64,000 nucleotides of DNA, from the IMG/VR virus record IMGVR_UViG_3300023296_001674. One strand, given 5' to 3'. How positions within the stretch are numbered: the first letter of the stretch is position 1; every line of letters starts with the position of its first letter. The DNA comes from a virus. Both the position numbers and the translations under genes were made by a program. The notes under the pieces were generated by a model, which saw only the letters and a program-made list of their open reading frames with translations, did not search any database and was not told the DNA's origin. This document shows positions 6,512-61,098 of the stretch, piece after piece.

Positions 6512-6536
6512 CTATGGTTTTTTGATAAATACTTAT

Positions 6537-7271
6537 ATGGTAAAACGCAAAACAACAGAACAGTTTATACAAGAATCGACTGCAATTCATGGTGATGTAT
6601 ATGATTATTCATTGACCAATTATATCAATAGACGTACCAAAGTAAAAATAATATGCACCGTTCATGGTATATATGAACAAACTGCGGGAAATCATTTATA
6701 TCAAAAACAAGGTTGCTCAAAATGTGCCGGTGATAAACAGGCATCGAGACAGCGAAAATCACTATCACAGTTTATTCAAGAGGCAACAATAGTTCACGAT
6801 TCTTTATATGATTATTCGTTGGTGGATTACAATCATACTGATATAAAAGTAAAAATAATATGCCCAACGCATGATATATTTAAGCAAACGCCGCATGATC
6901 ATTTACATGGAAAAGGTTGCCCTAAATGCGTTCATACTATATCAAAAGGTGAAACTAACTGGCTTAATCGCATTGGTTTACCAGACGATACACAACATAG
7001 ACAAGTGCGCTTGCCTATGAATAATAATAAAAATCGAAGGGTTGATGGTTATGATCCATTAACCAATACTGTTTATGAATTTCATGGTGATTACTGGCAT
7101 GGCAACCCCGCACGTTTTAATCTCGATGATATAAACCCAACCATTAAAAAACCATACAGACAACTCTATGAAGCCACCTTAACCAAGGAAGTGCTTATCA
7201 AAGATTCCGGTTATAATCTTGTAGTTATGTGGGAGCATGATTGGAAAGCTCATCCCTCCCTAACAGTATAA
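6537..7271 (+). CDS. homing-endonuclease-like protein (tandem zinc-ribbon-like repeats + C-terminal EDxHD/Vsr-like nuclease motif)
   Basis: Two repeats KVKIICxxHGIFxQTPxxHLxGKGCxKC; C-terminus VDGYDPLTNTVYEFHGDYWHGNP; paralog of 11698..12435 and 1..239; start uncertain (track gives TTG 6522). Confidence 0.6.
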   Translation: MVKRKTTEQFIQESTAIHGDVYDYSLTNYINRRTKVKIICTVHGIYEQTAGNHLYQKQGCSKCAGDKQASRQRKSLSQFIQEATIVHDSLYDYSLVDYNHTDIKVKIICPTHDIFKQTPHDHLHGKGCPKCVHTISKGETNWLNRIGLPDDTQHRQVRLPMNNNKNRRVDGYDPLTNTVYEFHGDYWHGNPARFNLDDINPTIKKPYRQLYEATLTKEVLIKDSGYNLVVMWEHDWKAHPSLTV

Positions 7272-11301: not shown

Positions 11302-11704
11302 AGCCGTAACGCAATATGAAACATTCGACGGAAAAGTATTCTCCGACGAAAATGCCGCTGAACAATGGGAACGCAATACAAATAAAGCAAACGCAATCAT
11401 ATCGATGTTTCCGAACAACGGTCATCTTTCATCTGGCGATTTCTATCAGTTATCAAGAGATTTGATTAGCACCGCGAGAATTAAACTTGCCGATGCTTTA
11501 ACTCGTGGCGGCTTCGATGACGAAATGATTAAAGCATTTCGTGATAATACCAGCGATGTAATCGGACGCTATCTCGACGACGGCGGTTCAACATATTATA
11601 AAGCATGGTGGTTATTTTCTTGTATTGACAATCAAGGGCGGATGTTCAATCAACCGTTCTTTGCCAATAATCCAAGAGAAATAAGAGATGAAGTTTCCTA
11701 TTGA
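11294..11704 (+). CDS. hypothetical protein
   Basis: ORF track; overlaps upstream by 8 nt. Confidence 0.55.
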   Translation: MPKAVTQYETFDGKVFSDENAAEQWERNTNKANAIISMFPNNGHLSSGDFYQLSRDLISTARIKLADALTRGGFDDEMIKAFRDNTSDVIGRYLDDGGSTYYKAWWLFSCIDNQGRMFNQPFFANNPREIRDEVSY

Positions 11705-12435
11705 TTCTTCCAATCATTTTCCCATATCGTGACAAGATTATAGCCGTGAGATTTAATAAGAGTCTCACGGTTCATAGTCTTTTGATATAACTCGCCGAAT
11801 GATTTTTTATTATTGGTGTTGATATGTTCGGGATTGTGTGTATTAGGATTCCCATGCCAATAATCACCATAGAACTCATATATGGTATTTGTGTCAGGGT
11901 CATAACCGTCTGGATATATCCATTGATTATTTAATATTAAAGTTCGTCGCCTATAATCATTTGTATCAGGTAATCCAATATGATCAAGCCACGATTTTTC
12001 CATATATGATTTATTCTGTATAGTTAATGGTCGCAACATAATGGCGCACTTATTACATCCATGATTTAAATGTGCTGATGGTTCTTGTTGAAATATTCCA
12101 TGTTCAGGGCAAATGATATTCACCTTTGTATGCGTGTTATGATAATCAACTAATGAATAATTATATTTATCGCCATGTTTTATCAACGATTTTTGTATAA
12201 ATTTTAATGTAGTTCCCCGTATTTTATCTGAATTATTTTTTATTGCACATTTAATACAGCCTTTTCCACTACTAGTGTGCGAACAAGGCGTCTGTTCAAA
12301 TATTCCATGAGTTGTGCATATTATTTTAACTTTGGTATGGGCGGCAATATATATAGACAATGAATAGTCATATCTATCACCATGAATGGCGATAGCATCT
12401 TGAATGAATTTTGAGGTAGTTTTTCTTCTTGACAT
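11698..12435 (-). CDS. homing-endonuclease-like protein (paralog of 6537..7271)
   Basis: MSRRKTTSKFIQDAIAIHGDRYDYSL..KVKIICTTHGIFEQTP..GKGCIKCA, second repeat, C-terminus YEFYGDYWHGNP. Confidence 0.65.
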   Translation of the reverse strand: MSRRKTTSKFIQDAIAIHGDRYDYSLSIYIAAHTKVKIICTTHGIFEQTPCSHTSSGKGCIKCAIKNNSDKIRGTTLKFIQKSLIKHGDKYNYSLVDYHNTHTKVNIICPEHGIFQQEPSAHLNHGCNKCAIMLRPLTIQNKSYMEKSWLDHIGLPDTNDYRRRTLILNNQWIYPDGYDPDTNTIYEFYGDYWHGNPNTHNPEHINTNNKKSFGELYQKTMNRETLIKSHGYNLVTIWENDWKNQ

Positions 12436-31556: not shown

Positions 31557-31672
31557 GATTTATATAATACCACAACAACCAAACATGTCAACAAAAAAGA
31601 TTCAATAATAACACTTGACTCCGTTTGGGTTGGGTGTATACTATCCATAGATTGAAACAAAGGATTAATCAA

Positions 31673-32593
31673 ATGGCAAAAGCAACCCGCACCAAAATCG
31701 ATCATGAGCAACAAATCACTAACGCTATTGTCGCCCACGTTGAAGGGTATATCGCCGCCGAGGCTACAGGCGAAGAGATCGCACGTTGGGAAAGCCCCTT
31801 CGGAAAATTCTTCCGTGAAGGCCATTTTTGCGCCGCAACCGATAACCAGTATAAAGGCTGGACTAACAATTTTTTCCTTACACTTATGGCGCACGCAAGC
31901 GGATTCAATTCCGATGCATGGGGAACATTCAAGCAATGGAAAAGCATGGGAACGGATGAAACACCCGTATCTGTTAAGCATGGTCAAAAAGGTTCCGCTT
32001 GGATTGCTTTTCCATATATCAACAAAGATAAAGTAACCGGCGACGACACCGTAACCGGATTCGGATATCGCGCCGTATTCAATGCCGATCAAATCGAAGG
32101 ATATACGCCCGAGGTTGTTGAACTACCAGAGTCGCAGGTTGTGCAACATGCCAAAGCTGAAACATTCTTGAAAAATCTGGACGTAACATTCCAGCATATC
32201 GGAAACCGCGCTTTCTATAGCCCTGCTAGTGATGCAATCAGCATGCCCCCAGAAGGCGCGTTTAAGGCGACTGAATACAGTACCGCAACCGAAGGCTACT
32301 ATGGCACCAAGTTTCATGAATACGCCCACGCAACCCTGCACGCTAGCCGGTGCAATCGCGAACAAGGCGCGGATAAAGCTTCATACGCTTTCGAAGAGTT
32401 GGTCGCCGAATTGACCTCGACTATCCTATGTTCGCGCTTTGGTATATCCGCACAACCACGCGAAGACCACGCTAAGTATATACATTCATGGTTGAAAGCA
32501 CTGAAAAGCGACAAGACCATGATTATGAAGGCAATGAAGAAAGCAAGCCAAGCAATCGCTTGGATGGATAAAAAGCAACCAACATCAAAATAA
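31673..32593 (+). CDS. ArdC-like protein (DUF1738-type ssDNA-binding N-domain + zincin HExxH metallopeptidase-like C-domain)
   Basis: ASGFNSDAWGTFKQWKSMG..KGSAWIAF ; FHEYAHATLH (HExxH); track ORF 31625 trimmed; promoter TTGACT..TATACT ~31615-31644. Confidence 0.5.
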   Translation: MAKATRTKIDHEQQITNAIVAHVEGYIAAEATGEEIARWESPFGKFFREGHFCAATDNQYKGWTNNFFLTLMAHASGFNSDAWGTFKQWKSMGTDETPVSVKHGQKGSAWIAFPYINKDKVTGDDTVTGFGYRAVFNADQIEGYTPEVVELPESQVVQHAKAETFLKNLDVTFQHIGNRAFYSPASDAISMPPEGAFKATEYSTATEGYYGTKFHEYAHATLHASRCNREQGADKASYAFEELVAELTSTILCSRFGISAQPREDHAKYIHSWLKALKSDKTMIMKAMKKASQAIAWMDKKQPTSK

Positions 32594-32654
32594 AAGGTTG
32601 ACAGTAAGGATATGATATCGTATTATATCCTTACTGAAACGAAAGGAACACACA

Positions 32655-32756
32655 ATGACACACGGTAACGGCAAGATCAGGCGATTCGCAGGCAATCTAG
32701 GGGCGCTAATGCTGGCAGCGCTGGCAGGCTACGCGACGCTGGTGGTCCTAGCATAA
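32655..32756 (+). CDS. small hydrophobic peptide (33 aa)
   Basis: Not in track; strong palindromic promoter 32589-32640; RBS gaaaggaacacaca-ATG; MTHGNGKIRRFAGNLGALMLAALAGYATLVVLA. Confidence 0.4.
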   Translation: MTHGNGKIRRFAGNLGALMLAALAGYATLVVLA

Positions 32757-32807
32757 CGCCAGAACCGAGTCAAGCACTTATTTCACGGTGTTGCACTTAT
32801 GACACAG

Positions 32808-32855
32808 TCAAGTCTTTTATTATAAAATAAAAATAAAAAAAGACTTGACATTCGA
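32808..32855. repeat. 13-bp perfect inverted repeat with AT-only loop
   Basis: GTCAAGTCTTTTTattataaaataaaaataAAAAAGACTTGAC. Confidence 0.55.
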
Positions 32856-32939
32856 AAAAAAGAGTGCTCGTGCAGTGTTTTGAAGTTTTTTATTTAATGG
32901 ATACCTTACCCTTAGCTCGAAATACGCCAAAATTTTTCA

Positions 32940-33075
32940 GGCTAAATCGGAACTCTGGCTATCGTGACACTTATCGTGACAAAATGTCGCGATACCATTA
33001 TAATGGGTCATTTATTCATCCTATCGTGACATTTGACCCATTATAATGGGTCAATACACCCCCCACCCCCTTTTC
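32940..33075. repeat. cluster of short repeats and palindromes at early-region/AT-island boundary
   Basis: TATCGTGACA x3 (one inverted as TGTCGCGATA); palindromic CCCATTATAATGGG x2 (second within 22-bp palindrome TTGACCCATTATAATGGGTCAA); then C6AC5. Confidence 0.55.
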
Positions 33076-33163
33076 TATGAAACACTTATTCATTCAATAT
33101 AAAAAAAATTCTGCGCCAAAATTTTAATAAATAATATTAGGTTTTTAACATAGGAACATTTAA

Positions 33164-33319
33164 CATGAAAACATTATCCGATAAACAACATGCTACCATT
33201 AAAGAGAACATGCGTGCTATTCCAAAAGCATCATATACAGACATTGATCGCACCGCAGTTCTTAAAGAAGAATATGCTGAATTTATAAAAAATATCAACG
33301 AAAGCGACAAACCAGAATA
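33164..33319 (+). CDS. small protein (~51 aa)
   Basis: Not in track; MKTLSDKQHATIKENMRAIPKASYTDIDRTAVLKEEYAEFIKNINESDKPE; coordinates approximate. Confidence 0.3.
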
Positions 33320-33323
33320 AACA

Positions 33324-33755
33324 ATGAGAGCATCCGACTTCATCGCTGAAACACTTATATCTGTTTCGCACGGAACCAATACCGATTTTGATCAATTAGA
33401 TGTGGCAAAAACATCCGATGGTGGAATTCACTTTGGTTCCAATCAACAAGCAGCGTTACGATCAACTGGAAAAAATTCGCGCATCATCGATACACAAATT
33501 GATGTTAGAAAACCAAAACGTTGCAAAGACGATGGATCAGGATGGAAAAACAAAATAAAATCCGCCAAACGTTCTGGATATGACAGTATTGTATATTTGA
33601 ACCGTTATGAAAATATGACCACTGAACGAGTAGAACAGTTATCACAATCCGGCAAACTAGATACTTTGGATTCATTATCCGATGCCGCATTCAAAAAATT
33701 AGTTCCTGAAGCACAAGACAGTTATATTGTGTTCGACAACGATCAAATAAAATAG
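33324..33755 (+). CDS. hypothetical protein (N-terminus MRASD.. shared with next gene)
   Basis: ORF track. Confidence 0.5.
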   Translation: MRASDFIAETLISVSHGTNTDFDQLDVAKTSDGGIHFGSNQQAALRSTGKNSRIIDTQIDVRKPKRCKDDGSGWKNKIKSAKRSGYDSIVYLNRYENMTTERVEQLSQSGKLDTLDSLSDAAFKKLVPEAQDSYIVFDNDQIK

Positions 33756-39152: not shown

Positions 39153-39536
39153 ATGAAAAAATTATTATTAGCGGCAACACTTATGGTATTGCCATTTACT
39201 GCGATGGCAGAAGAACAAACAGTTGGAATGTCTGCTACATTTATGTGTAGAGTGGCATCAACAGTAGACGCGCATTTAACTAGATTGGGTTATACCAAAG
39301 GTGTTGAACTTGATGGATTAAATATGGGAACCATTATTATATGGTACGGAACAGAAAACGGCATCAAATCTTGGATGCTTACTGCGAATACACCCAATGG
39401 TTTAACTTGCAAATTAGATAATGGTTATGTTGATCTCAAAAACCCAACCGAAACTACTCCTGAATCGTCAAAACCAAAACTGGATGAAGAATCATTAAAG
39501 AAAATGATGGACAACGCGAAAAAAGACTCACTTTAA
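39153..39536 (+). CDS. secreted protein
   Basis: Signal peptide MKKLLLAATLMVLPFTAMA. Confidence 0.55.
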   Translation: MKKLLLAATLMVLPFTAMAEEQTVGMSATFMCRVASTVDAHLTRLGYTKGVELDGLNMGTIIIWYGTENGIKSWMLTANTPNGLTCKLDNGYVDLKNPTETTPESSKPKLDEESLKKMMDNAKKDSL

Positions 39537-40207
39537 CATTTGATTATATAAATATAATTTGGAAAATTGACCGACTTCAATCTCCTTCTTACAGTTTCTT
39601 CGCCGAGTTTTAATATTTTTGCCGACTCGATGACTGATGAATATATAACGTCGTCTATTTTAACAGATTTTTTGCGATGATTATTTTCTGGATGTTTTCC
39701 ATATAACGGATGTTTATCACCGATTTTTCCATACATGCCATTTTTTTCACCAGAATTTTTTTCACTTATTTTTTGTTTAGTTTCATCTGTTCTTGGCACA
39801 CCGAATAATGGATTATTTTTTCCAGTTCTGCCCCACATTGGATTATTTTTTCCTTTCATTTTCTCTGCAAATTTAGGTCTTTTAACACCTGTTCTGTTGG
39901 GTGGTCTTCTATCAACGCAAATATTAGTAAGTATGCCATTTTTGTCATAACCATTTCGACCAAGTTTTTTAATCCACGTTTTTTCTAAATCATATGCATC
40001 CTTTTCTGGCATATTTTTTTCTATGAATTTAACACCAGGTTCTAATCCTTCTTTTCGTATCGCATTTATTTTATTCCATTTTTGTATATTTTCTGTTGTG
40101 TGTATAGTTTCCGTCAGATGTCTCTTCCATCGGTCTTTTGATCCTTTTCCTATATAAAATTCTATATTATCATGTCTTGGGTCTAGCAATGCGTATACGT
40201 AATACAT
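39533..40207 (-). CDS. GIY-YIG homing endonuclease with NUMOD3-type repeats
   Basis: MYYVYALLDPR..FYIGKGSKDRWKRH; repeated GKNNPMWG/KNNPLFG/KHPLYG motifs. Confidence 0.75.
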   Translation of the reverse strand: MYYVYALLDPRHDNIEFYIGKGSKDRWKRHLTETIHTTENIQKWNKINAIRKEGLEPGVKFIEKNMPEKDAYDLEKTWIKKLGRNGYDKNGILTNICVDRRPPNRTGVKRPKFAEKMKGKNNPMWGRTGKNNPLFGVPRTDETKQKISEKNSGEKNGMYGKIGDKHPLYGKHPENNHRKKSVKIDDVIYSSVIESAKILKLGEETVRRRLKSVNFPNYIYIIKC

Positions 40208-40288
40208 GTATATCCTTATTCGTTATATGTTTTATCCCATCATATATTTATAATAAATATTAATAATGTATAAAATAAGGAATATATC

Positions 40289-40642
40289 ATGACTGAAAAA
40301 ATTATAAACGAGCATCCATTTAAAAAATATTGGCGTCCAGCAGCGGCTACGGTATATTTAATAATATGCATATTCGATTTTATAATAATGCCATCAATAA
40401 TAGAAATTTCTAACACTAAAATAACAAATCAGCAAGCAATAACGCTGGCGTTAAAATTTAATGATTCAGCATCACAAATGCAATCATTGAGTGTGTTTAT
40501 GGAAAAGCGAACATGGAACCCATTAACCCTTCTGGGTAGTGGGTTTTTTCACCTTAGTTTTGGTGCGTTGTTAACAGGTTCGGCTATCACACGTGGCTTA
40601 GAGAAGAAGCAGCACGCTAGCAATGGCAAAGTTATGAAATAA
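40289..40642 (+). CDS. membrane protein
   Basis: ORF track; TM segments. Confidence 0.5.
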   Translation: MTEKIINEHPFKKYWRPAAATVYLIICIFDFIIMPSIIEISNTKITNQQAITLALKFNDSASQMQSLSVFMEKRTWNPLTLLGSGFFHLSFGALLTGSAITRGLEKKQHASNGKVMK

Positions 40643-41120
40643 TAAGTTCTACGCTTACAAAACCTTCTGATTTTGTAGGTCGTTCGTATGTTTCTATCAT
40701 TTGGTTAACTATCTTGTCGCTAACACTTTTACCAGTTTCGTTCTGGCGCTTTTCAAGGCGGCGGAACAATTCGTCATAATCCAATTCGAATGCAACTGCC
40801 TTATGAACATACTTAGGGGTTTGCAACATCTTCTTACGACGAATTTTAATCGAAAGGTTAGTTTGATCCCAAATGATGTGTTTTTTTTTGTTGACAGCCT
40901 CGCGCAGAGCGATGTTGAACTTAGTCTTAGTTTTGAACGGCAACTTGTAGAATGCTTCAGAGTAGGTGATACCTTGCTCCGCAGCATACTTTTCAATGAA
41001 GACGTCGGTGCTAATAACGGTCCAATCGTTTGAATCGTTTTCCATGAACTGCTTAATCCAAGTTGATTTACCGGAACCTGGTGGTCCGATTAACATCATA
41101 ATTGTTGGTTTGTGTAACAT
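40632..41120 (-). CDS. P-loop polynucleotide-kinase-like protein (T4 Pnk kinase-domain-like; no phosphatase domain)
   Basis: IMMLIGPPGSGKSTWIKQF; VISTDVF; IIWDQTNLS; LEKRQNETG pattern parallels T4 Pnk N-domain. Confidence 0.55.
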   Translation of the reverse strand: MLHKPTIMMLIGPPGSGKSTWIKQFMENDSNDWTVISTDVFIEKYAAEQGITYSEAFYKLPFKTKTKFNIALREAVNKKKHIIWDQTNLSIKIRRKKMLQTPKYVHKAVAFELDYDELFRRLEKRQNETGKSVSDKIVNQMIETYERPTKSEGFVSVELIIS

Positions 41121-41131
41121 AATATTATTCC

Positions 41132-41536
41132 TTAGTGTTTATTTCTTTTCTTTCCAAGATTAATAACGTCAATACCTTCGTTATGTAAATCATATTGTTC
41201 GTGTGCTGTTGCGGTTCCATGTATGCCGCGCTCTTCTTTGTCGCCATAATGGATAGCACGCACTTCGTCAGCAAATCTTTCTCCTACATCTTCGCAGTTT
41301 TTTTCAACCCACTCTAATGCTTGTTGTTCATTATCTGATGACTTAGCATAATCTGATTTAGGGCGCGAACCTTTTTTCGAAATATTAGGAGCCATCAATG
41401 CTTTGCTGGTGTGTGTATCACCGCATACAGGGCATTCAATCGCCTTGGTTCCAAGCAGTTCATCGCATTTTGCGGAACTTACGAACCAAGACTCGAACAC
41501 GTGTTCATTTTTGCACTTAATATTATATTTTATCAT
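41132..41536 (-). CDS. zinc-ribbon protein (DUF1178-like)
   Basis: MIKYNIKCKNEHVFESWFVSS..CDELLGTKAIECPVCGDTHTSKALMAP. Confidence 0.45.
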   Translation of the reverse strand: MIKYNIKCKNEHVFESWFVSSAKCDELLGTKAIECPVCGDTHTSKALMAPNISKKGSRPKSDYAKSSDNEQQALEWVEKNCEDVGERFADEVRAIHYGDKEERGIHGTATAHEQYDLHNEGIDVINLGKKRNKH

Positions 41537-41556
41537 GTTGTTATTATATATGGTTT

Positions 41557-41844
41557 GTGCAATATGTCAAGATGTTTATTATTGACTTATGGACGGTGTT
41601 TTTATATAATGATATTATGAGATATTTACATGTAGAAGCACATAGTGGTCGTCCATATTGGATTGTGATTGAAGAAAAAAACAAAGATAATCATTGGGGT
41701 CAAATGTTGAATATAGGAATGAGTGTTTGGTTGTGTGAAAATATATCAACATCGGGCGATGATTGGTGTTTTTTAGACACTAACAATGCAGTTAGTTTTT
41801 TAAATCTTGATGATGCGATGGCATTCATTTTGCGATGGGCATAA
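41557..41844 (+). CDS. hypothetical protein with C-terminal ..DDAMAFILRWA motif
   Basis: ORF track; TTGACT-N17-TATAAT ~41505-41533. Confidence 0.5.
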   Translation: MQYVKMFIIDLWTVFLYNDIMRYLHVEAHSGRPYWIVIEEKNKDNHWGQMLNIGMSVWLCENISTSGDDWCFLDTNNAVSFLNLDDAMAFILRWA

Positions 41845-42098
41845 ATATAGATATGATAACTGTTAAATTATGCGATCACGGAATAAATGTTACCATGCAT
41901 CAAGATGCCGAATTTATTGAAACTGAAAAGGGTATATGGTTAGAGGATAATAACATCGATTATCGCATTTGTTCTATTGTTAATATCTTGGCTATGAATA
42001 TAGACGGTAAGACAATTGATGCGATATCTATTGAAAATATGTCATTTTTTAGCGAAGAAGACTTTATGGCATTTAAATTGCGATGGAGCAATCAATAA
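41835..42098 (+). CDS. hypothetical protein with C-terminal ..EEDFMAFKLRWSNQ motif (paralog)
   Basis: ORF track. Confidence 0.5.
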   Translation: MGINIDMITVKLCDHGINVTMHQDAEFIETEKGIWLEDNNIDYRICSIVNILAMNIDGKTIDAISIENMSFFSEEDFMAFKLRWSNQ

Positions 42099-42580
42099 GA
42101 AGCAAGTTTGGGTGCAAGGAAATCCATATGTGACATAGGGGTATTAATGACAACTGAAAAAGGTAACATCGAAAAATCACCAGCCCAATCTGTACCATTA
42201 TATAACACTTGGTTTAAGAATCTATCATATTTCAATCTAATACTTGAGACTGTTATTACGCATTGTATGCCATCGTCGTTGATATAATATCGCAATCGAT
42301 TGTTATGCAAATCGACAAATCCACCATAATGCATAGTGCCATCTATTAAAATGGTCGCATTACGATAATCATAGCAGTCAGTTCCACCACGTCTTGCTTT
42401 ATACACTTTTTCTTGTTTCCAATTCAATGAATAAGTATTATCTTGATATGTATGTATGCCATCTATTTTTAAGGCGTTACCGTGGAGAACTTTTTGTTTA
42501 AATGAGTTTTCTGTTTGAACGGTTAATGCTTCACCATGAAGTAAATAGCATCCAGTTTCTGATTGTTTTATTGTATTCAT
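42092..42580 (-). CDS. hypothetical protein
   Basis: ORF track. Confidence 0.45.
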   Translation of the reverse strand: MNTIKQSETGCYLLHGEALTVQTENSFKQKVLHGNALKIDGIHTYQDNTYSLNWKQEKVYKARRGGTDCYDYRNATILIDGTMHYGGFVDLHNNRLRYYINDDGIQCVITVSSIRLKYDRFLNQVLYNGTDWAGDFSMLPFSVVINTPMSHMDFLAPKLASY

Positions 42581-42655
42581 AAGTATTCCTATACTAAATA
42601 TTAAAACAGGATATAATAAATCACAGTAAAAGTCAATAAAACAGGAAAGTATATT

Positions 42656-43045
42656 ATGAGTTTTAATAAAATCATCGACGATATTAAGATTAAGTATTTA
42701 ACGATGGACCCAAGCGTTGATCCAAAGAATAAAGAATCGCGCCGGAACTGGATATTATTCATGGCGAACAAGACACAACGGTTTCCTGTACGTCAGGTAT
42801 ATGATAGATTGATACCGTCTGTAACAAAGATGACAGTCAATACAGATATGAAATACCTTGAAGATCAAGGACTTATCAGGCGCGAGAAAGAAAGTGATGG
42901 AACATCGCATATCGTTCCATTGTTTGATGATTCAGGTGAAGCACCTGAACCAAAGCACGTCATATATAAAAGATGGGCGAAAAATGTAATATTACCACTT
43001 ATTGCCTTGACATTACTTGTCGTATTTGTTATTATCAGTGGTTGA
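42656..43045 (+). CDS. winged-helix-like protein with C-terminal transmembrane anchor
   Basis: VRQVYDRL..VTKMTVNTDMKYLEDQGLIRRE; C-terminal ILPLIALTLLVVFVIISG. Confidence 0.4.
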   Translation: MSFNKIIDDIKIKYLTMDPSVDPKNKESRRNWILFMANKTQRFPVRQVYDRLIPSVTKMTVNTDMKYLEDQGLIRREKESDGTSHIVPLFDDSGEAPEPKHVIYKRWAKNVILPLIALTLLVVFVIISG

Positions 43046-43065
43046 TATTAACGAGGAAAAAGAAT

Positions 43066-43803
43066 ATGTTATACAGTATAGGCGACGTTCATGGAAGATA
43101 TGATTTACTTAGATATCTTCATGAAAAAATAATGGAACATTCTAAACAATTTGATGAAGTGCATACAATAGTTATGTTGGGCGATTATATTGATCGTGGT
43201 CCAGATAGTAAACAAGTCATTGATTTTTTGATAACTGAACCATTTACAGATTTTAAGCATGTATATTTAAAAGGCAATCATGAAGATATGATGATAAAGT
43301 CATTATATAGTGATGAAGAAACCGTTATATATGATGTATACAAACAAGATATGTATAATGCTAGGAATATATTCTTAGGCAATGGTGGAACAACGACGTT
43401 AGAATCATTCGGGGTTGAATATATCAGACTAATGAATGATAAAGAATCCTTGGATCATGTATTTTTGCCATATTTGCCATTTTTCATGGGTTTAGAATAT
43501 TATTATGATGTTAATGGATATTATTTTGTTCATGCTGGCATTGTTCCTGGTGTTCCATTGGATCAGCAAGACCCTAACGCTGTGCTTTGGATACGTGATA
43601 GGTTTTTAAATAATACTGATGATCATGGCAGATTGATAATACACGGACACACGCCCACGACAACGCGTGGTATGGGTGCTCATCCAGAAGTTAAACCCAA
43701 CCGTATTAATATAGATACGTGTGCATATCGTACTGGAATTTTAACAGCGGTATGTCTCGACGAAGCGCATCTCCGAGTGCCAGAGTTTATTAGCACAGAA
43801 TAA
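43066..43803 (+). CDS. Ser/Thr protein phosphatase (lambda-PPase/calcineurin-like)
   Basis: GDVHGRYD, GDYIDRGPDS, GNHEDM, HGHTPT. Confidence 0.75.
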   Translation: MLYSIGDVHGRYDLLRYLHEKIMEHSKQFDEVHTIVMLGDYIDRGPDSKQVIDFLITEPFTDFKHVYLKGNHEDMMIKSLYSDEETVIYDVYKQDMYNARNIFLGNGGTTTLESFGVEYIRLMNDKESLDHVFLPYLPFFMGLEYYYDVNGYYFVHAGIVPGVPLDQQDPNAVLWIRDRFLNNTDDHGRLIIHGHTPTTTRGMGAHPEVKPNRINIDTCAYRTGILTAVCLDEAHLRVPEFISTE

Positions 43804-43886
43804 ATTGTTTTTTATTTGACATATGTGATATATATATGTTACTATCATGTTATAAAATAACAATAATCTTTAATATGGAGTAACAA

Positions 43887-44288
43887 ATGAATAAAAATCT
43901 GCTTACAACTTTGATAAATATTAATATAGTAAAGCCCGGAACCGAAATAGCAATGTTGCGTATCGGAAACTCGATGGTTGGATCAGGAGCAACCTCTTTG
44001 AAAATGAGGGTGTTTAGCACAGAAGATAAGGACGGTAATCAACAACAAATAGAAGTGAATGCAAATCATCTCGTAGAAATATATAAGTGTGAAATAATCG
44101 ATGAAGAAATATCTATATATGCACATAGCGTTGTAGATGGCGAAAAATTCATATTAAATGACGAAGATATTGTATTGATTGACAGCATGTTACCAGAAAA
44201 ATTAGCTGCGGTTTACGGATACACACCAGACGGAATCAAAAAGATACAAGGCAAAAAGCGGGGGCGTAAACCAAAAATAAGAGAGTAA
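43887..44288 (+). CDS. hypothetical protein with basic AT-hook-like C-terminus (KKRGRKPKIRE)
   Basis: ORF track; promoter TTGACA ~43815. Confidence 0.5.
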   Translation: MNKNLLTTLININIVKPGTEIAMLRIGNSMVGSGATSLKMRVFSTEDKDGNQQQIEVNANHLVEIYKCEIIDEEISIYAHSVVDGEKFILNDEDIVLIDSMLPEKLAAVYGYTPDGIKKIQGKKRGRKPKIRE

Positions 44289-44858: not shown

Positions 44859-45330
44859 AATGAATGATATACAATTGAGTGGAAATTTTAAATTATCAGA
44901 GTTGGTTAAGTCAGATACGGCGGAAAGGTTAGATATTGATAACTGGCCCACAGACAATGATACTATTGAAGCGTTAAGGGTGACAGCAAACAGAATATTG
45001 CAGCCCGTCAGAATGAATTACGGTATTTCTTTTTCGCCTACTAGCGGGTTTCGTTGCTTAACCTTGAATAGAGCATTAAAATCGAAAGATACATCTGATC
45101 ATGTTTTAGGTAGAGCAGTAGATTTTGAAGTACCAGGAATACCAAATAAAGATTTGGCTGTGTGGATACGAGATAACCTATCTTTTGATCAGGTTATATT
45201 AGAATTTTGGGATGGGATAAATCCAAACTCTGGGTGGGTGCATTGTTCTTTTAGATCAGAAACTGAAAATAGAAATCAGTGTTTAACTATTAATAAAAAT
45301 GGCGTATTTAATGGATTTAGAGCAAATTAA
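44851..45330 (+). CDS. peptidase M15-like zinc peptidase (candidate cell-wall hydrolase/endolysin)
   Basis: SDHVLGRAVDFEV (S-x-H-x2-G-x-A-x-D) typical of M15 family. Confidence 0.5.
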   Translation: MNKMNDIQLSGNFKLSELVKSDTAERLDIDNWPTDNDTIEALRVTANRILQPVRMNYGISFSPTSGFRCLTLNRALKSKDTSDHVLGRAVDFEVPGIPNKDLAVWIRDNLSFDQVILEFWDGINPNSGWVHCSFRSETENRNQCLTINKNGVFNGFRAN

Positions 45331-46024
45331 ACAAGAAATTTATTATTTATATGAAATTGAAAATATTATCAATGGAAAGAAATATATCGGATATACTAAT
45401 AATCCAAGACTTCGCCAAAAAGCACATTTTGTTTGGAAAAATAGTGGGTCTATATTGGTTGAACATGCTATTAAAAAATATGGATTAGATTCATTGCGGT
45501 TTAAAATACTTGTTAAATCAGACAATGAAGTATATATTAAAGATTTAGAAATTGCAGCCATTAGCTCTCTTAATACCAAAGCACCACAAGGGTATAATTT
45601 AACTGATGGCGGCGAAGGAACTCGTGGTTTGACATTATCTGATAATCAAAAAGCAGATAGAAGTAAAAACATGAAAGGTAAAATGATTGGTGAGAAAAAT
45701 CCCTTTTATGGAAAGAAACATGATCCAGAAACTCTAAAAAGAATGGTAGAAACTAGAAGAAAAAATGGATCATATGTTGCGTGGAATAAAGGCGGCGGAC
45801 ATAAATTAAGTGCTAAAAGTCGCAAAAGTCTCCGTGAAAACAGACCTGTTGGCGGGACAAAAAATCCAAACGCCAAGTTGACGGAAGAAAAAGTACGAGA
45901 AATATATAATCTAAAAGGACAAATGACTGGTGAAAAGGTCGTCATGTTCTTAGGTTTGAATGTATCTGGTGAGACCGTTAGACGTATATGGAATAGAACT
46001 ACATGGTCGAGTTTAGTATATTAA
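45299..46024 (+). CDS. GIY-YIG homing endonuclease with NUMOD-like motifs
   Basis: IYYLYEIENIINGKKYIGYTNNPRLRQKAHF; GEKNPFYGKKH. Confidence 0.7.
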   Translation: MAYLMDLEQIKQEIYYLYEIENIINGKKYIGYTNNPRLRQKAHFVWKNSGSILVEHAIKKYGLDSLRFKILVKSDNEVYIKDLEIAAISSLNTKAPQGYNLTDGGEGTRGLTLSDNQKADRSKNMKGKMIGEKNPFYGKKHDPETLKRMVETRRKNGSYVAWNKGGGHKLSAKSRKSLRENRPVGGTKNPNAKLTEEKVREIYNLKGQMTGEKVVMFLGLNVSGETVRRIWNRTTWSSLVY

Positions 46025-46551: not shown

Positions 46552-47391
46552 ATGAAATCACCATTACGATATCCGGGTGGCAAAACGCGTGCAACCAAAA
46601 CATTATACTCGTTAATACAATACCATATACAACAAAATAATATAACTGATATATGTTCGCCATTTTTGGGTGGAGGATCATTTGAATTATTTTTATGTAC
46701 AACTGGCATTAATGTTACCGGATATGACATTTTTGATCCGTTGGTAGATTTTTGGCAGTGCATGTTAACTGATCCAGATAAATTAGTTGCGGTTATAGAA
46801 ACTTATAAAAAATCATATGACAGTGGAATACCAACAGCAAAAGAACAATTTTATATATTACAAAAAACACAACACGAATATTCCGACGTATGGCACAGGG
46901 CGGCAATATTTTTCACATTGAATAGATCGTCTTTTTCTGGATCGACGATGTCTGGTGGATGGTCGCCCGATTATCCACGTTTTAATGATTCTTCTATCGA
47001 AAGAGTTAAATCATTTAACGAACCATTGCTGCAAGTTAATAAATTATCGTTTGATCAATCTATAACAAAACATAAAAACAGTTTTCTATATCTCGATCCG
47101 CCATACATGATTGAACACAATCTTTATGGAAAAAAAGGAAACACCCATAAAGATTTTGATCATTTAGGATTATATGACATATTAACAACTAGAGATAATT
47201 GGATTATGTCATACAACGATGATGCTGATATTCGAAATTTATATCAGAATTATAAAATAGAAACGGTAAATTGGGCATATGGCATGACTTCTAATCGCAA
47301 ATCAAATGAAATCGTTATATTCAGTGATGATATAATATCCGACCCTTACTCTATAGATGCTATATCAAAAGGCGCGAATATAATTTGGTAG
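46552..47391 (+). CDS. dam: DNA N6-adenine methyltransferase (Dam-like, alpha group)
   Basis: RYPGGKTR; FLGGGSFEL (motif I); LDPPY (motif IV); TTGACA-N17-TATAAT ~46491-46519. Confidence 0.75.
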   Translation: MKSPLRYPGGKTRATKTLYSLIQYHIQQNNITDICSPFLGGGSFELFLCTTGINVTGYDIFDPLVDFWQCMLTDPDKLVAVIETYKKSYDSGIPTAKEQFYILQKTQHEYSDVWHRAAIFFTLNRSSFSGSTMSGGWSPDYPRFNDSSIERVKSFNEPLLQVNKLSFDQSITKHKNSFLYLDPPYMIEHNLYGKKGNTHKDFDHLGLYDILTTRDNWIMSYNDDADIRNLYQNYKIETVNWAYGMTSNRKSNEIVIFSDDIISDPYSIDAISKGANIIW

Positions 47392-56661: not shown

Positions 56662-57513
56662 ATGTATAACACAAGAATAGCGCCATCACCAACGGGTGAT
56701 ATGCACCTTGGTACTGCTAGAACCGCTTATCATAATTTTTTGATGGCAAGGGCGTCCGGTGGAAAATTTATATTGCGCATCGACGATACTGATGCTGCAC
56801 GCAGTAAACAGTCGCACGTCGACGTCATCCTTGAAACTATGGATTGGTTGGGTTTAGACTACGACGAAATCGTTTATCAAAGTGATAGAAATGATCGTTA
56901 TATGGAAGTAATCAAACAGATGGATGCAGATGATCTTGTTTGCGAGTTAGACAATGGTGCATTTGGCACATTCATCGAAAGGGTTCCTGATGAATGGACA
57001 GATGAAATTGCTGGTGATATTATAGTGTCAGAGACCGATAGTGATATTAGTTCTAGTCTTATATTAATGAAAAGTGATGGAACTCCTACTTATCATTTTG
57101 CATCAGTAATAGATGATATGGATTTCAATATTAATTATATTATCAGAGGACACGATCATATATCTAATACACCAAAGCAACTCAATATTATGAACAACCT
57201 TGGTATGGTCATACCTAAGTTCGCACACGTGGGTCTTATTCACAAAGACGGTAAGAAATTATCTAAACGTGACGGCGCAGCAAGTATGTTGCACTATCGC
57301 GATCAAGGATATGACCCTGATGCAATGCTCAATTTTTTATTGAATCTTGGGTGGGCACCAACAAATCAAGGCAAGCAACATAAAATAATAGATCGTGATT
57401 TTGCTCTAGAGATTTTTATCAATGGTGGAAAATTGCGCAATCAATCAGCAAATATGGATTTAGCATTACTAGATTCATACAATAAAAAGTATAAGTATAT
57501 CAAGAGGAAATAA
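56662..57513 (+). CDS. class I aminoacyl-tRNA-synthetase paralogue: GluRS catalytic-domain only (GluQ-RS/YadB-like)
   Basis: IAPSPTGDMHLGTARTA (HIGH), RIDDTD, SDGTPTYHFASVIDDMDFNINYIIRGHDHISNTPKQ, DGKKLSKRDG (KMSKS); 283 aa, no anticodon-binding domain. Confidence 0.8.
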   Translation: MYNTRIAPSPTGDMHLGTARTAYHNFLMARASGGKFILRIDDTDAARSKQSHVDVILETMDWLGLDYDEIVYQSDRNDRYMEVIKQMDADDLVCELDNGAFGTFIERVPDEWTDEIAGDIIVSETDSDISSSLILMKSDGTPTYHFASVIDDMDFNINYIIRGHDHISNTPKQLNIMNNLGMVIPKFAHVGLIHKDGKKLSKRDGAASMLHYRDQGYDPDAMLNFLLNLGWAPTNQGKQHKIIDRDFALEIFINGGKLRNQSANMDLALLDSYNKKYKYIKRK

Positions 57514-57514
57514 A

Positions 57515-58351
57515 ATGAAGTACGATTTAGGTTCAGATTTACACGTAGATATTAATGCGGGTCGCATTGGTATGGTTAGATTTAAAGAAATGAAAAACGC
57601 AGGTAGTGATACTATAGTATTGGCAGGTGATATATCAAATGATCCAGAACTCACTGTTAAAGTATTAGCGATGGCGGCATCGGCATATGAAAATGTAATA
57701 TTTGTGGATGGAAATCACGAACATTATAGTAACGGAAAATATGGGTTAGACGTTTCTGGTGCTATGGGATTCTTCAAAGAAGCAATAGATTTAATACCAA
57801 ATGTCACATATTTATCTGGCGACAATAACGTTATTATTGACGACACGATGTTCGTTGGGGCTAATGCTTGGTATGATTTTAGAATGGCACCACCACAATA
57901 CACGCCTGAAAAATGCAAAGAAGCATGGGAAACAAGCCTAAATGATTTTAGATTATCTAATTTTGACGTAGAGCCAGAAGTATTGGCGGGTATTCAGTCT
58001 GCATTGATTGCGGATCAAGTATCCAAAGCGCAAGATAATGACGATGTTAAAAAAATAGTAGTTGTTACCCACACCGTGCCGAACACTAAAGGATTATTAG
58101 TTAAAAATAATCCATCGTGGGATATATTAAATGGCTGTTTTGGAAATTCAACGATGTCAAACGTATGGCAAGTTGATACAAATCGCAAAATTATTCACGC
58201 AGTTTGTGGACATACACATTATCCAAATGATTTTGTCGACAACGATGGTATAAGATTTGTAATAAATCCAAGAGGTTATCATGGTGCTGAAAACGAACTT
58301 GGTGATAGATGGTTTTTAGTTCAAATGGATACATCAGACGAACGTATATAA
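57515..58351 (+). CDS. metallophosphoesterase (calcineurin-like)
   Basis: GSDLHVD, LAGDISND, DGNHEHY, VVTHTVP, CGHTHYP; ATG overlaps upstream TAA. Confidence 0.7.
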   Translation: MKYDLGSDLHVDINAGRIGMVRFKEMKNAGSDTIVLAGDISNDPELTVKVLAMAASAYENVIFVDGNHEHYSNGKYGLDVSGAMGFFKEAIDLIPNVTYLSGDNNVIIDDTMFVGANAWYDFRMAPPQYTPEKCKEAWETSLNDFRLSNFDVEPEVLAGIQSALIADQVSKAQDNDDVKKIVVVTHTVPNTKGLLVKNNPSWDILNGCFGNSTMSNVWQVDTNRKIIHAVCGHTHYPNDFVDNDGIRFVINPRGYHGAENELGDRWFLVQMDTSDERI

Positions 58352-58358
58352 AATAAAA

Positions 58359-58394
58359 TAAACCGGTTGGATACAGTTCTAACCGGTTTTATTT
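58359..58394 (+). terminator. rho-independent terminator
   Basis: AACCGGTTggatacagttctAACCGGTTttatttt. Confidence 0.55.
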
Positions 58395-58426
58395 TGATAA
58401 ATACCTTTACATAAAGAGGTTTCATA

Positions 58427-60076
58427 ATGACAAAATATTACATGGGTGTATCCGCTTATCATCACGATAGTGCTGCCGCGCTAATAGATGAACACGGAAA
58501 CATTATTTGCGTTAGCCAAGAAGAACGTAGAACACTTATAAAGAATGACAAATCGTGGCCTGAAGAAAGTATTAATTTTTGTTTACGTCATGCAAAATCG
58601 CAACAGTTAGATACATCCGATATCACTTATGGATTTTATGAAAAACCATGGATTAAATTTACACGTAGATTTTGTCAAAATCCTAAAGACACCGTTCGAT
58701 ATTTCAAAGAAGCATATAATACTACGAAAAAAATAAAAGGTTATAAAACCATAATGCATCACGATGCTCATGCATTGGCTGGATGTGCAACATCGCCATT
58801 TGATAATTGTGTATATTTAATAGTTGATGCAGTGGGTGAATGGGAGACGACAACTTGGGGAACATTTAATAAAATCGATGGTATAAAAAAAGAAGGGTCT
58901 ATTAGATATCCGCACAGTATAGGATTAATGTATTCATCATTTACGAGATGGTTGGGATTAAAACCAAACGAAGATGAATATATTGTAATGGGTGCGGCGG
59001 CTTTCGGTAAACCACGATTTGCTAATAAAATAAGAAAAGATTTTTTATCAGAAGTAACAGCATCGCCACATGGAATAGAATTTAAAAAAGGAGTTCATAA
59101 CGGTATAGAGCAATACTACGGCGACGAAGTTCCCGTAAAAGATTGGTATGATTGGTGTGCGAGCATCCAGTATGTATGCGAACAAATGATGATAGATTTG
59201 GTTAGAATGTTAGAGCAACAATACGGCAAAGGTCATAATTTGGTATTAGGCGGCGGTGTAGCACTTAATTGTGTGGCAAATTCTAAAATAATGAAATCAA
59301 CGCATGTGAAAGAATTATGGATATTACCAAGCCCCGGTGATAGTGGAAACGCGCTAGGGGCTGCTGCGCACGCCGCTGGCATCAATGATTTAGTTTGGGA
59401 TAGTCCTTACCTTGGAATGGACATGGATAACGACAGTAACCCAACACAGGAACTAATACGCAACGTTGTAGCAAGATTGGATAATGGTGAAATTATAGGT
59501 TGGATACAAGGCAAAGAAGAATTTGGTCCGCGCTCTTTGGGTCATCGTTCATTGCTTGCCGATCCAAGATCATCGAAAATTAAAAATAAAATAAATTTAA
59601 TAAAAAATCGACAAACATTTAGACCTTTCGCACCGTCTGTGTTAGAAGAAGAAACATATATGTATTTTGACTTACCAAATGGCACAACAAGTAGATACAT
59701 GCAATTTACAGCAAGAGTAAAAAATCCAAATATGTTACCTGCAATATGTCATATTGATGGAACCACCAGAGTTCAAACCGTACCTAAATCAACCGATCCA
59801 TTTAGACGATTGCTTGAGCATTGGAAAGAAACCACTGGTTGTGCAGCATTGTTGAACACCAGTCTTAATATCAAAGGTCAACCATTAATGAGTAATCGAA
59901 AAGATGCTATTCAAATGTTATTAGATACACCAATGGATGCATTGGTTATAGGCAATAGATTGTACTATAAAATAACAAAAGATGGATTAAGCGATGAACC
60001 CGGCGAAACGGTTCAAATAGCAGAATGTATAGATTACAGCCAAGGCGTTGATGACATGATTAAAGGTCGTTTCTAA
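58427..60076 (+). CDS. NodU/CmcH/TobZ-family carbamoyltransferase (Kae1-like + YrdC-like architecture expected)
   Basis: MTKYYMGVSAYHHDSAAALIDEHGNIICVSQEERRTLIKNDKSWPEE N-terminus typical of Carbam_trans_N; 549 aa; RBS aagagg. Confidence 0.7.
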   Translation: MTKYYMGVSAYHHDSAAALIDEHGNIICVSQEERRTLIKNDKSWPEESINFCLRHAKSQQLDTSDITYGFYEKPWIKFTRRFCQNPKDTVRYFKEAYNTTKKIKGYKTIMHHDAHALAGCATSPFDNCVYLIVDAVGEWETTTWGTFNKIDGIKKEGSIRYPHSIGLMYSSFTRWLGLKPNEDEYIVMGAAAFGKPRFANKIRKDFLSEVTASPHGIEFKKGVHNGIEQYYGDEVPVKDWYDWCASIQYVCEQMMIDLVRMLEQQYGKGHNLVLGGGVALNCVANSKIMKSTHVKELWILPSPGDSGNALGAAAHAAGINDLVWDSPYLGMDMDNDSNPTQELIRNVVARLDNGEIIGWIQGKEEFGPRSLGHRSLLADPRSSKIKNKINLIKNRQTFRPFAPSVLEEETYMYFDLPNGTTSRYMQFTARVKNPNMLPAICHIDGTTRVQTVPKSTDPFRRLLEHWKETTGCAALLNTSLNIKGQPLMSNRKDAIQMLLDTPMDALVIGNRLYYKITKDGLSDEPGETVQIAECIDYSQGVDDMIKGRF

Positions 60077-61098
60077 TGCACCCATATATGTTTGTTTTAA
60101 AACTTGCGACACTTAAAAAAATGGCTGATAAAAAAACGGTGTTGCGCGGTGCAGCGGTAGATGGATGCATCAATTTATTTGAAGGTTTTCAATTAGCGTT
60201 TGATAAAAAACGAGTATTTCATGTTAAAAGTGTGCCATTGATTGAAATAGATGAAACAATGTCACAAGATGAAATAACCGAAAATGGAACATACACTTGG
60301 GATATGTTTAAGGCGTTGGTTGGTTTATTAGAAAAAAATGATATTGATGAAGAAACGAAAAAAACGCTATTATATGAAGCGTGTGAACAATCGGGAATAT
60401 TAGAATGGAATGGATTCTATCGTCCCATACTCATGAAAAATATTAAATGTGGGGTAATGCCAAAAACAATAAACGCGATATTGGATGAATTCGGCGGAAC
60501 GGCATTGAAATATAAAATACCAATATGGAAAATACAACGAATACATCAAAATGGATTACATGTAGGTGAAAAATATGTAGAACCATTATTAGATGGCAAA
60601 CGAGCAATCACGATTGTAAATAAAGAATTAAAAATTGCTCAAATGTTTTCTGAAACTGGTGTATTAATAAAAACCCACAAAATAGATTTGGAACCATTGG
60701 CAGAATTGTCATATCAATTTCCAGCAAGTATGGTATTCGATGGTAATATAATCGATAGAAGTTATGGTGAACTTATGGATAAATCTGGAACCGATTCATA
60801 TTATGCGATATATGACATTATTCCGTTATCTGATTTTGAAAAAAGTTATTGCCCAATGGCGCTAACAGATCGAAAAAATACATTAAATGACCTTAACCTC
60901 ATTCTACGCGAAGAAACGAATGGGCAGATATATGTCCTACCGTCTTTACTGATGGATTTTTCTGCTGAAAATAAAGAAAAGAAACTAAAAGAAATTTCCG
61001 ATGAAATAAAAAATGCCGGATTTAAAGCATCAGTTGTCAAAGATAGCAAATCATTCTACACTTGTGCACGCGATTTATCATGGTTCAAAACACAATAA
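60076..61098 (+). CDS. hypothetical protein (340 aa); weak ligase/nucleotidyltransferase-like motif spacing
   Basis: LLDGKRA, VFDGNII, GFKASVVKD in ligase-like order but motif I lacks Lys; speculative. Confidence 0.45.
   Translation: MHPYMFVLKLATLKKMADKKTVLRGAAVDGCINLFEGFQLAFDKKRVFHVKSVPLIEIDETMSQDEITENGTYTWDMFKALVGLLEKNDIDEETKKTLLYEACEQSGILEWNGFYRPILMKNIKCGVMPKTINAILDEFGGTALKYKIPIWKIQRIHQNGLHVGEKYVEPLLDGKRAITIVNKELKIAQMFSETGVLIKTHKIDLEPLAELSYQFPASMVFDGNIIDRSYGELMDKSGTDSYYAIYDIIPLSDFEKSYCPMALTDRKNTLNDLNLILREETNGQIYVLPSLLMDFSAENKEKKLKEISDEIKNAGFKASVVKDSKSFYTCARDLSWFKTQ

Follow-up and report, generated by a model that had tools for sequence, protein, structure and literature searches.

A stand-alone Pnk-like kinase without the acceptor arginine, encoded next to a DUF1178 gene in a very large phage, and the linkage of its family to RNA repair genes

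The polynucleotide kinases (Pnk) of RNA repair have an Asp-x-x-Arg motif that is common to the bacterial, phage, and baculovirus enzymes (35-DDYR-38 in T4 Pnk and 38-DFCR-41 in CthPnk, the C. thermocellum enzyme; PMC3902929). Its arginine, which contacts the acceptor at the first phosphodiester, is essential in both T4 Pnk and CthPnk (PMC3902929, PMC2831316). Other essential residues of T4 Pnk are K15, S16, D35, D85, and R126 (PMC2831316). Here we describe a 162-residue P-loop kinase related to these enzymes, encoded on the minus strand at positions 40632 to 41120 of a 64,000-nucleotide stretch of viral DNA (IMG/VR record IMGVR_UViG_3300023296_001674; hereafter, the window).

The window kinase differs from each of the described systems closest to it. 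Its identity to the kinase domain of T4 Pnkp/PseT (PDB 1LY1/1LTQ) is about 24%; it lacks the fused HAD phosphatase of T4 Pnkp, has Ile42 in place of Arg38 of 35-DDYR-38, and shares with the rest of its phage family a T-Y-S-E-A-F helix (with Y53 invariant) inserted after the Asp helix. The best profile matches are Pnkp1 of the Capnocytophaga Pnkp1-Rnl-Hen1 system (4XRP) and the kinase domain of C. thermocellum Pnkp (4GP6). Both are multidomain proteins (kinase and phosphatase, with or without a ligase) that keep the Asp-x-x-Arg motif, whereas the window kinase is a single domain without the arginine and without a Hen1 or ligase neighbor. The Mucorales enzymes MciKIN, RazKIN, and LcoKIN (PDB 9D8A, 9DRZ) are verified stand-alone RNA 5'-kinases of 163 to 174 residues that have a separate ligase (PMC11571804); they are eukaryotic, act in tRNA splicing, are GTP specific via a G-loop, and are only distant relatives of the window kinase (19% identity).

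The original prediction described a stand-alone Pnk-like kinase adjoining a DUF1178 gene. Indeed, both open reading frames (ORFs) lie exactly at the coordinates given for them (the DUF1178 ORF, of 134 codons for amino acids, at 41132 to 41536, also on the minus strand) and both are real genes, with matches to Pfam AAA_33 for the kinase (E value of 1.3e-22, followed by KTI12 at 8e-9) and to PF06676 for its neighbor. The kinase belongs to phrog_6931 by its best PHROG match (1e-24). Searched against the PDB as a single sequence, it has Pnkp1 (4XRP, 3e-10) and T4 Pnk on top. A profile built from an alignment of 38 homologues (profile A1), which was also used to judge invariance, matches Pnkp1 at 1.4e-18, the C. 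thermocellum Pnkp kinase domain at 4e-15, PSTK at 5e-15, the Mucorales RNA kinase RazKIN at 9e-13, T4 Pnk at 2e-12, and mammalian PNKP at 2e-10. Shikimate, adenylate, and guanylate kinases follow at 1e-4 to 1e-3, which puts adenylate and shikimate kinases about 10 orders of magnitude below the Pnk-type matches. In profile and fold searches alike, the leading matches are Pnkp1, CthPnkp, PSTK, the Mucorales RNA kinases, and T4 Pnk and not the adenylate or thymidylate kinases that had been named as matches that would speak against a Pnk identity. Similarly, the full-length yet subthreshold NCBIfam matches are PSTK (selen_PSTK, 33 bits, with the cutoff at 290.5), bacterial Pnkp, and PNK-3'Pase. 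The adk models match the P-loop only (residues 8 to 38; 24 bits, far short of the cutoff of 168), and identity as an adenylate or other nucleoside monophosphate (NMP) kinase was rejected, as the match is confined to the P-loop and the NMP-binding region is unmatched. The protein has the Pnk kinase fold, and these profile comparisons place it in the Pnk clade.

The catalytic motifs point in the same direction. The P-loop reads G12-P-P-G-S-G-K18-S19-T20, in which G12, S16, G17, K18, S19, and T20 are invariant across the 38 homologues, and S37, D39, Y53, D85, T87, N88, R94, R121, and R125 are invariant elsewhere in the protein. The essential residues of T4 Pnk have counterparts here: K15/S16 in K18/S19, D35 in D39, D85 in D85, and R126 in R125, with the invariant R94 falling outside this correspondence. 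The D-x-T-N motif and the R-x-x-x-R lid correspond to T4 D85/T86 and R122/R126. D39, the putative general base, aligns with T4 D35 and Cth D38 in HMMER alignments and sits at the N terminus of a helix (residues 38 to 49) in the structure model. The motif-by-motif parallel with T4 Pnk that had been drawn earlier therefore holds for GPPGSGKSTW (residues 12 to 21), S37/D39, and D85-Q-T-N-L, but the lid is R121-x-x-x-R125 followed by QNETG and not R-x-x-R-G, and it had been overlooked that the arginine of the Asp-x-x-Arg motif (T4 R38) is Ile42. The predicted lack of a 3'-phosphatase domain was confirmed. The protein ends at residue 162 directly after the kinase fold, the DNA 3' of the gene is taken up by a conserved convergent gene, no phosphatase domain is present in the ORF, and tblastn with the HAD Pnk-phosphatase gave zero matches in the 64-kb window.

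The kinase is one of a large family. A profile search of 1.84 billion representative sequences recovered 1,750 clusters (at 50% identity) with E values of ≤1e-30 and 8,679 with E values of ≤1e-10, annotated only as "ATPase" or "unknown." Nearly all members stand alone, as 148 of the 150 best representatives are 150 to 200 residues long. The family is essentially viral, with the best prokaryotic matches, among 185,579 representative genomes, at ≤33% identity. Some of these nearest cellular relatives are found in Hen1-Rnl-Pnkp1 operons (Capnocytophaga, Taibaiella, and Dysgonomonas), and others lie directly after Rnl1-like ligases.

We surveyed gene neighborhoods in 80 IMG/VR loci together with INPHARED and metagenome loci; at 70% identity, their kinases make up 43 clusters. 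Of these, 14 have an RNA ligase no more than 2 kb from the kinase, and 19 have one within 10 kb. The number of clusters with a phosphoesterase within 2 kb is likewise 14, a count that includes an NT5C-like HAD enzyme and the PPP-type enzyme of the window itself. According to Pfam, an iterated hidden Markov model of the HAD phosphatase had strayed to NT5C-type nucleotidases in clusters 5, 6, 12, and 22; the repair partners used in the tree and motif analyses are only those HAD matches within 700 bp that Pfam confirmed as HAD_PNKP. When same-strand genes within 2 kb were clustered and ranked without regard to function, the Rnl1 RNA ligase was the most frequent neighbor (10 + 3 kinase clusters). 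It was followed by a small metallophosphoesterase of about 190 residues (8 clusters), a family of about 200 residues that includes a Pfam-HNH endonuclease at locus L005 (8 of the 43), dCMP deaminase (4), and DUF1178 (3).

Individual loci show how these partners are combined. Rnl1, the kinase, and HAD_PNKP are contiguous at, for example, L039, L062, and L079, with Pfam matches to RNA_lig_T4_1 at 6.5e-30 and to HAD_PNKP at 2e-27 and 7e-36. In Ruegeria phage RpAliso, Rnl1 overlaps the kinase start and a Pnk-type phosphatase is encoded separately, 2.5 kb upstream; in Synechococcus phage B23, Rnl1 adjoins the kinase; and in the Campylobacter Fletchervirus, an HD domain is fused to the kinase, with Rnl1 1 kb away. 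The Xanthomonas jumbo phage XacN1 (L011) has the kinase, Hen1, and PNKP_ligase in succession, and its authors interpreted the Hen1/PNKP pair as tRNA repair (PMC5852040). ORF197 of this phage, published as "PNKP," contains the Pnkp ligase domain only; ORF198 is Hen1; and ORF199, annotated merely as "predicted kinase" in the record, is a separate kinase of the family described here. With kinase and ligase domain in separate ORFs around Hen1, XacN1 has a split Pnkp/Hen1 system.

Linkage of the kinase to Rnl1, HAD_PNKP, the small metallophosphoesterase, Hen1, and HD thus recurs across many independent phages and extends to the nearest relatives in bacteria, and the family is best read as the 5'-kinase of modular, split RNA heal-and-seal systems. 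The split cassettes (kinase with HAD_PNKP and Rnl1, kinase with the small metallophosphoesterase and Rnl1, kinase with Hen1 and Pnkp ligase, and HD-kinase with Rnl1) show the modularity of phage RNA repair. We also observed that the kinase is often only a few kilobases from genes of nicotinamide adenine dinucleotide (NAD) salvage (NAMPT and NMNAT-Nudix; loci L002 to L009, L010, L023, and L026), which are within 10 kb in 11 of the 43 clusters; this proximity suggests islands that pair RNA repair with NAD-replenishing counter-defense genes.

On balance, the 162-residue protein of the window appears to be a stand-alone 5'-OH polynucleotide (RNA) kinase of this phage-specific, single-domain family of the Pnk clade, a reading that we hold to be somewhat better than even. 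We infer its substrate, biological role, and ligase partner in the window phage as follows. ATP or another nucleoside triphosphate would bind the P-loop (K18/S19) beneath the R121-x-x-x-R125 lid, D39 would activate the 5'-OH of a broken RNA, and the resulting 5'-phosphate end would be sealed by an RNA ligase from elsewhere in the ~570-kb genome or from the host. The protein may act early in counter-defense, repairing RNA, such as tRNA, that host ribotoxins have cleaved, as T4 Pnkp and Rnl1 do; a consensus sigma-70 promoter and a location among anti-restriction and methylase genes (both described below) fit such a role. If so, the gene would add one more common, minimal phage 5'-kinase that is combined with separate ligase and 3'-phosphoesterase genes, and such mixed-and-matched kinase genes would serve to undo host ribotoxin damage.

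Several observations weigh against this reading. The first is the acceptor motif itself, 39-DVFI-42, in which Ile42 takes the place of T4 R38, Cth R41, and PSTK R44. Across 103 family sequences, position 42 is Ile, Val, or Leu, except for one Arg, one Phe, and three gaps, and it is Ile, Val, or Leu in all 23 members whose genes have an RNA ligase gene no more than 2 kb away, as it is in all 34 phosphoesterase-linked members. The family alignment contains no conserved basic residue near position 42 in the sequence. Since the substitution is family-wide and includes the ligase-linked members, we regard it as a hallmark of the whole family and not as a defect of the window gene. Mammalian PNKP, a genuine polynucleotide kinase, likewise lacks this arginine (PMC2831316). 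Because of the missing arginine, we describe the protein as Pnk-like in action and refrain from classing it with the canonical T4-type Pnk domains; its sequence assigns the gene to a large phage variant of the Pnk kinase that is defined by a single domain and the lost acceptor arginine. The family thus lacks an arginine thought to be universal in RNA repair Pnks, and an RNA-bound structure would reveal the alternative acceptor site.

Second, PSTK and Kti12 score about level with Pnk, indicating that the fold alone does not fix the substrate. The protein could accordingly be imagined as a tRNA-dependent kinase or ATPase of the PSTK/Kti12 kind, with an aminoacyl-tRNA or an intermediate of tRNA modification as its substrate. 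PSTK and Kti12 (PDB 3ADB, 6QP0) have a C-terminal tRNA-binding domain that is absent from the window kinase, which ends after the kinase fold, and PSTK keeps the arginine at position D+3; we consider this identity very unlikely. In addition, we know of no member of the kinase family that has been assayed.

Third, repair partners of the kinds seen elsewhere are missing nearby. In the 64-kb window, tblastn with Rnl1, Rnl2-like ligase, Pnkp ligase, Hen1, and HAD_PNKP gave zero matches, and no small metallophosphoesterase of the family's partner type was found. Split end healing, one of the two functions originally proposed for the gene, is therefore strongly supported for the family by its linkage to Rnl1, HAD_PNKP, metallophosphoesterase, Hen1, and HD, but it lacks a ligase, Hen1, or HAD_PNKP in the window. 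The closest relatives of the window kinase (41 to 48% identity; clusters 9, 38, 10, 28, 18, 25, and 26) form a subclade from large phages in a neighbor-joining (NJ) tree, and all of them are without a ligase or phosphoesterase gene within 10 kb; one cluster of the subclade is near NAD-salvage genes (NAMPT and NMNAT-Nudix) and a ClpB-like gene. Slightly more remote relatives, outside the subclade, adjoin genes for dCMP deaminase and NAD salvage. The window-kinase subclade is flanked on both sides by ligase-linked lineages in this tree, which has very long branches and no support values and is used as a hint only. A functional shift in the subclade is possible. It is this possibility that keeps our confidence in the polynucleotide kinase reading only somewhat better than even.

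Such a shift could have produced a small-molecule kinase, acting on a nucleoside, a nucleotide, or an NAD-related compound in phage nucleotide or NAD metabolism, in a subclade that has lost its RNA repair role. Near relatives lie 0.7 to 6 kb from NAMPT and NMNAT-Nudix genes, other near relatives adjoin dCMP deaminase and are about 2 kb from an NT5C-type nucleotidase, and the proximity to NAD salvage extends to 11 of the 43 clusters, as noted above. The loss of the phosphodiester-binding arginine and the linkage of DUF1178, at other loci, to ribonucleotide reductase and glutaredoxin would also suit a small-molecule substrate. The arginine is equally missing from the ligase-linked members of the family, and the profile matches that lead are those of Pnk-type enzymes. 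We regard a small-molecule kinase as unlikely.

Two phosphoesterases that had been reported elsewhere in the window are indeed present, both on the plus strand. The nearer one, a PPP-family (lambda/NinI-like) metallophosphoesterase at 42973/43066 to 43803, lies 1.85 kb from the kinase on the opposite strand. It matches phrog_246 at 1.9e-45 and, at 2e-9, the phosphatase segment (positions 170 to 276) of the Pnkp-like profile phrog_8238. Its best PDB matches are RLPH2 (1e-9), BSU1, lambda phosphatase (3e-5), and PP1, with the CthPnkp phosphatase at only 6.8e-4. An enzyme of this type is near the kinase at one other locus only (L099), 3.5 kb from an Rnl1-kinase pair. As it is nearer to protein phosphatases than to the CthPnkp phosphatase, its candidacy as a partner in 3' end healing is only weak. 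The second enzyme, a phrog_1649 metallophosphoesterase at 57515 to 58351, lies 16 kb from the kinase. Neither is of the partner type seen in the kinase family.

A ligase-like gene is located at 60076 to 61098 on the plus strand. Its 340-residue product is a homologue of ATP-dependent DNA ligases (PDB 6RAR, 7e-30) in which the motif I lysine is replaced by leucine (EPLLDGKR compared with EIKLDGVR). The product also lacks an OB domain, and none is encoded by a downstream ORF. It was rejected as a sealing partner on these three grounds, DNA ligase homology, loss of the motif I lysine, and lack of the OB domain, and is probably a ligase-like protein that has been inactivated or put to another use.

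The other function originally proposed, in DNA modification, was that of a kinase akin to the 5-hydroxymethyl-dU (5-hmdU) DNA kinases, M6 gp54 and ViI gp67 (PMC5889632). These are likewise small phage P-loop kinases that act on a nucleic acid hydroxyl. They represent another family, with marginal profile similarity to the window kinase: M6 gp54 falls in phrog_800 (2e-39), which the window kinase matches only at 2.6e-4, and an hhalign comparison of the kinase family profile with gp54 covers 32 columns only (72% probability). Further, no ViI-like or M6-like phage is among 110 tblastn matches of the kinase, and the companion genes are not found in the window. Searches of the 64 kb with M6 gp51, gp52, gp53, gp55, and gp58 (tblastn and phmmer) gave zero matches, and no homologue of the dU-hydroxymethylase, of aGPT-Pplase, or of the pyridoxal phosphate (PLP) or radical-SAM enzymes is present. 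Three enzymes encoded at 56662 to 60076 (a truncated GluRS-like enzyme, a phosphoesterase, and a carbamoyltransferase) could modify nucleic acids and would suit such a pathway. A 5-HMUDK-like enzyme, or another kinase that primes DNA hypermodification, is in our view extremely improbable, and this part of the original prediction is not supported.

The genes at 56662 to 60076 form a compact, plus-strand cluster of three that may be a tRNA or nucleic acid modification module. The first encodes a truncated GluRS catalytic domain of 283 residues, which matches NCBIfam gltX_bact (7e-81; 272 bits, barely below the cutoff) and also GluQRS/YadB (6e-49); the second encodes the phrog_1649 metallophosphoesterase; and the third encodes a 549-residue carbamoyltransferase of the NodU/CmcH type.

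The DUF1178 gene directly precedes the kinase gene. Its product matches PF06676 with an E value of 7.9e-41 (140 bits against a cutoff of 31.6) and consists of an N-terminal zinc ribbon (C8/H12/C35/C38) and a C-terminal domain with the conserved pattern VG..F..E.R.IHYG...RGI.G. The invariant positions are C8, H12, C35, C38, W17, F18, V84, G85, F88, G98, and G107. The window protein is compact, without the low-complexity linker found in bacterial homologues. Its structure model (predicted local distance difference test score, 82) shows the CHCC zinc ribbon and a small alpha/beta C-terminal domain, and a search with this model found no significant structural neighbors. The two genes are separated by 11 bp (junction, 41121 to 41134, minus strand), and the TAA stop codon of DUF1178 (41134 to 41132) overlaps a Shine-Dalgarno-like AAGGA (41133 to 41129) located 8 nucleotides ahead of the kinase ATG. 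The short gap and this overlap of stop codon and ribosome-binding site indicate that DUF1178 and the kinase are cotranscribed and closely coupled, as a predicted tight two-gene unit.

Conservation of the neighborhood, which had been suggested as a check, is real for the DUF1178 adjacency but specific to a lineage. The pair recurs in two further kinase clusters (L014 to L016 and L017), with 61 to 62% identity for DUF1178 and 46 to 48% for the kinase, so that DUF1178 accompanies the kinase in only 3 of the 43 clusters, all in one NJ clade. The spacing varies, with a 110-bp gap in L014 and an 85-residue ORF between the genes in L017. In the P0010/P0012 clade, a gene of 138 codons precedes the kinase; it was considered as a hidden DUF1178 and rejected, having no similarity and no Pfam match.

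DUF1178 itself has other partners elsewhere. In low-GC viral contigs we found 129 relatives and inspected 80 IMG/VR loci (L102 to L181), which represent about four lineages only. None of the 80 contains the kinase. Instead, in 65 of them the DUF1178 stop codon is followed after only a few bases by the start of a glutaredoxin gene, and nrdA-nrdB lie immediately upstream in 62 to 64. The single bacterial DUF1178 locus inspected (L018) has a glutaredoxin gene about 1.5 kb upstream and no kinase. The sole DUF1178 match in INPHARED, MT835930, was discounted as a high-GC fragment with a flanking integrase that resembles a bacterial/prophage border. These associations suggest a redox or ribonucleotide reductase-linked role for the DUF1178 family.

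The 11-bp gap, coupled ribosome-binding site, and shared promoter, the persistence of the pair in two further kinase clusters, and the absence from the kinase of both the acceptor arginine and a nucleic acid-binding extension like the PSTK C-terminal domain could all be taken to mean that the two proteins form a dedicated module. The zinc ribbon protein would then be a targeting or regulatory subunit or a phospho-acceptor, and the function would be other than plain end healing. The restriction of the pairing to 3 of 43 clusters in a single clade, the variable spacing, the 0 of 80 other viral DUF1178 loci with a kinase (where the order is nrdA-nrdB-DUF1178-grx), the bacterial locus without one, and the lack of any structural clue all argue otherwise, and we find a dedicated module rather improbable. 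A bolder version, that the Ile-for-Arg family or its jumbo phage subclade has evolved new acceptor recognition, or has a new acceptor altogether, and works as a two-protein module with DUF1178, seems to us doubtful to a similar degree. DUF1178 would in that case be, for example, an RNA- or protein-targeting subunit or, given its linkage to glutaredoxin elsewhere, a redox-sensitive regulator, and the module would provide the first functional assignment for DUF1178. More probably, the pairing reflects synteny specific to this lineage, with no obligatory coupling or subunit relationship. Taken by itself, the window locus is ordinary; the useful part lies in the family-level features of the kinase and in the linkage of DUF1178 to glutaredoxin and ribonucleotide reductase.

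A perfect consensus sigma-70 promoter (TTGACA-16-TATAAT, identified by its match to the consensus only) is located at 41543 to 41570 on the minus strand and ends 6 nucleotides before the DUF1178 ATG, which predicts a leaderless or near-leaderless early transcript. Perfect TTGACA-N16-18-TATAAT sites occur four times in the window (4254, 8497, 41543 on the minus strand, and 46490), compared with 0.15 expected, and none of 100 shuffles reached four. The four are probably real host-type early promoters, and the phage would thus use promoters of the host sigma-70 type. ArdC-like anti-restriction (MPTase-PolyVal domain), ART-PolyVal, and Dam-type DNA methylase (MethyltransfD12) genes are present at 31625 to 33755 and 46552 to 47391 and fit an early counter-defense region around the kinase. 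In a PADLOC search, the kinase had only weak generic P-loop matches (AriA, 1e-6), and its neighbors had no matches. The same kinase protein is encoded on contigs of up to 570,750 bp, indicating that the window derives from a very large phage. A megablast search of positions 39500 to 43900 against 50,697 phage records gave zero matches, and the phage thus has no close relative among these sequenced phages.

Downstream of the kinase, a convergent gene for a predicted membrane protein of 117 residues (40289 to 40642, plus strand) overlaps the kinase 3' end by 11 nucleotides; its synteny with the DUF1178-kinase pair extends to the related contig L014, at 65% identity. It is followed by a free-standing GIY-YIG/NUMOD3 homing endonuclease gene (39533 to 40207) on the same strand as the kinase. 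This gene is not present in L014 and is a mobile element with no part in the function of the kinase unit. At least four free-standing homing endonuclease genes are found in the window (6522 to 7271; 11698 to 12435, minus strand; 39533 to 40207, minus strand; and 45299 to 46024), two of the HNH type and two of the GIY-YIG/NUMOD3 type.

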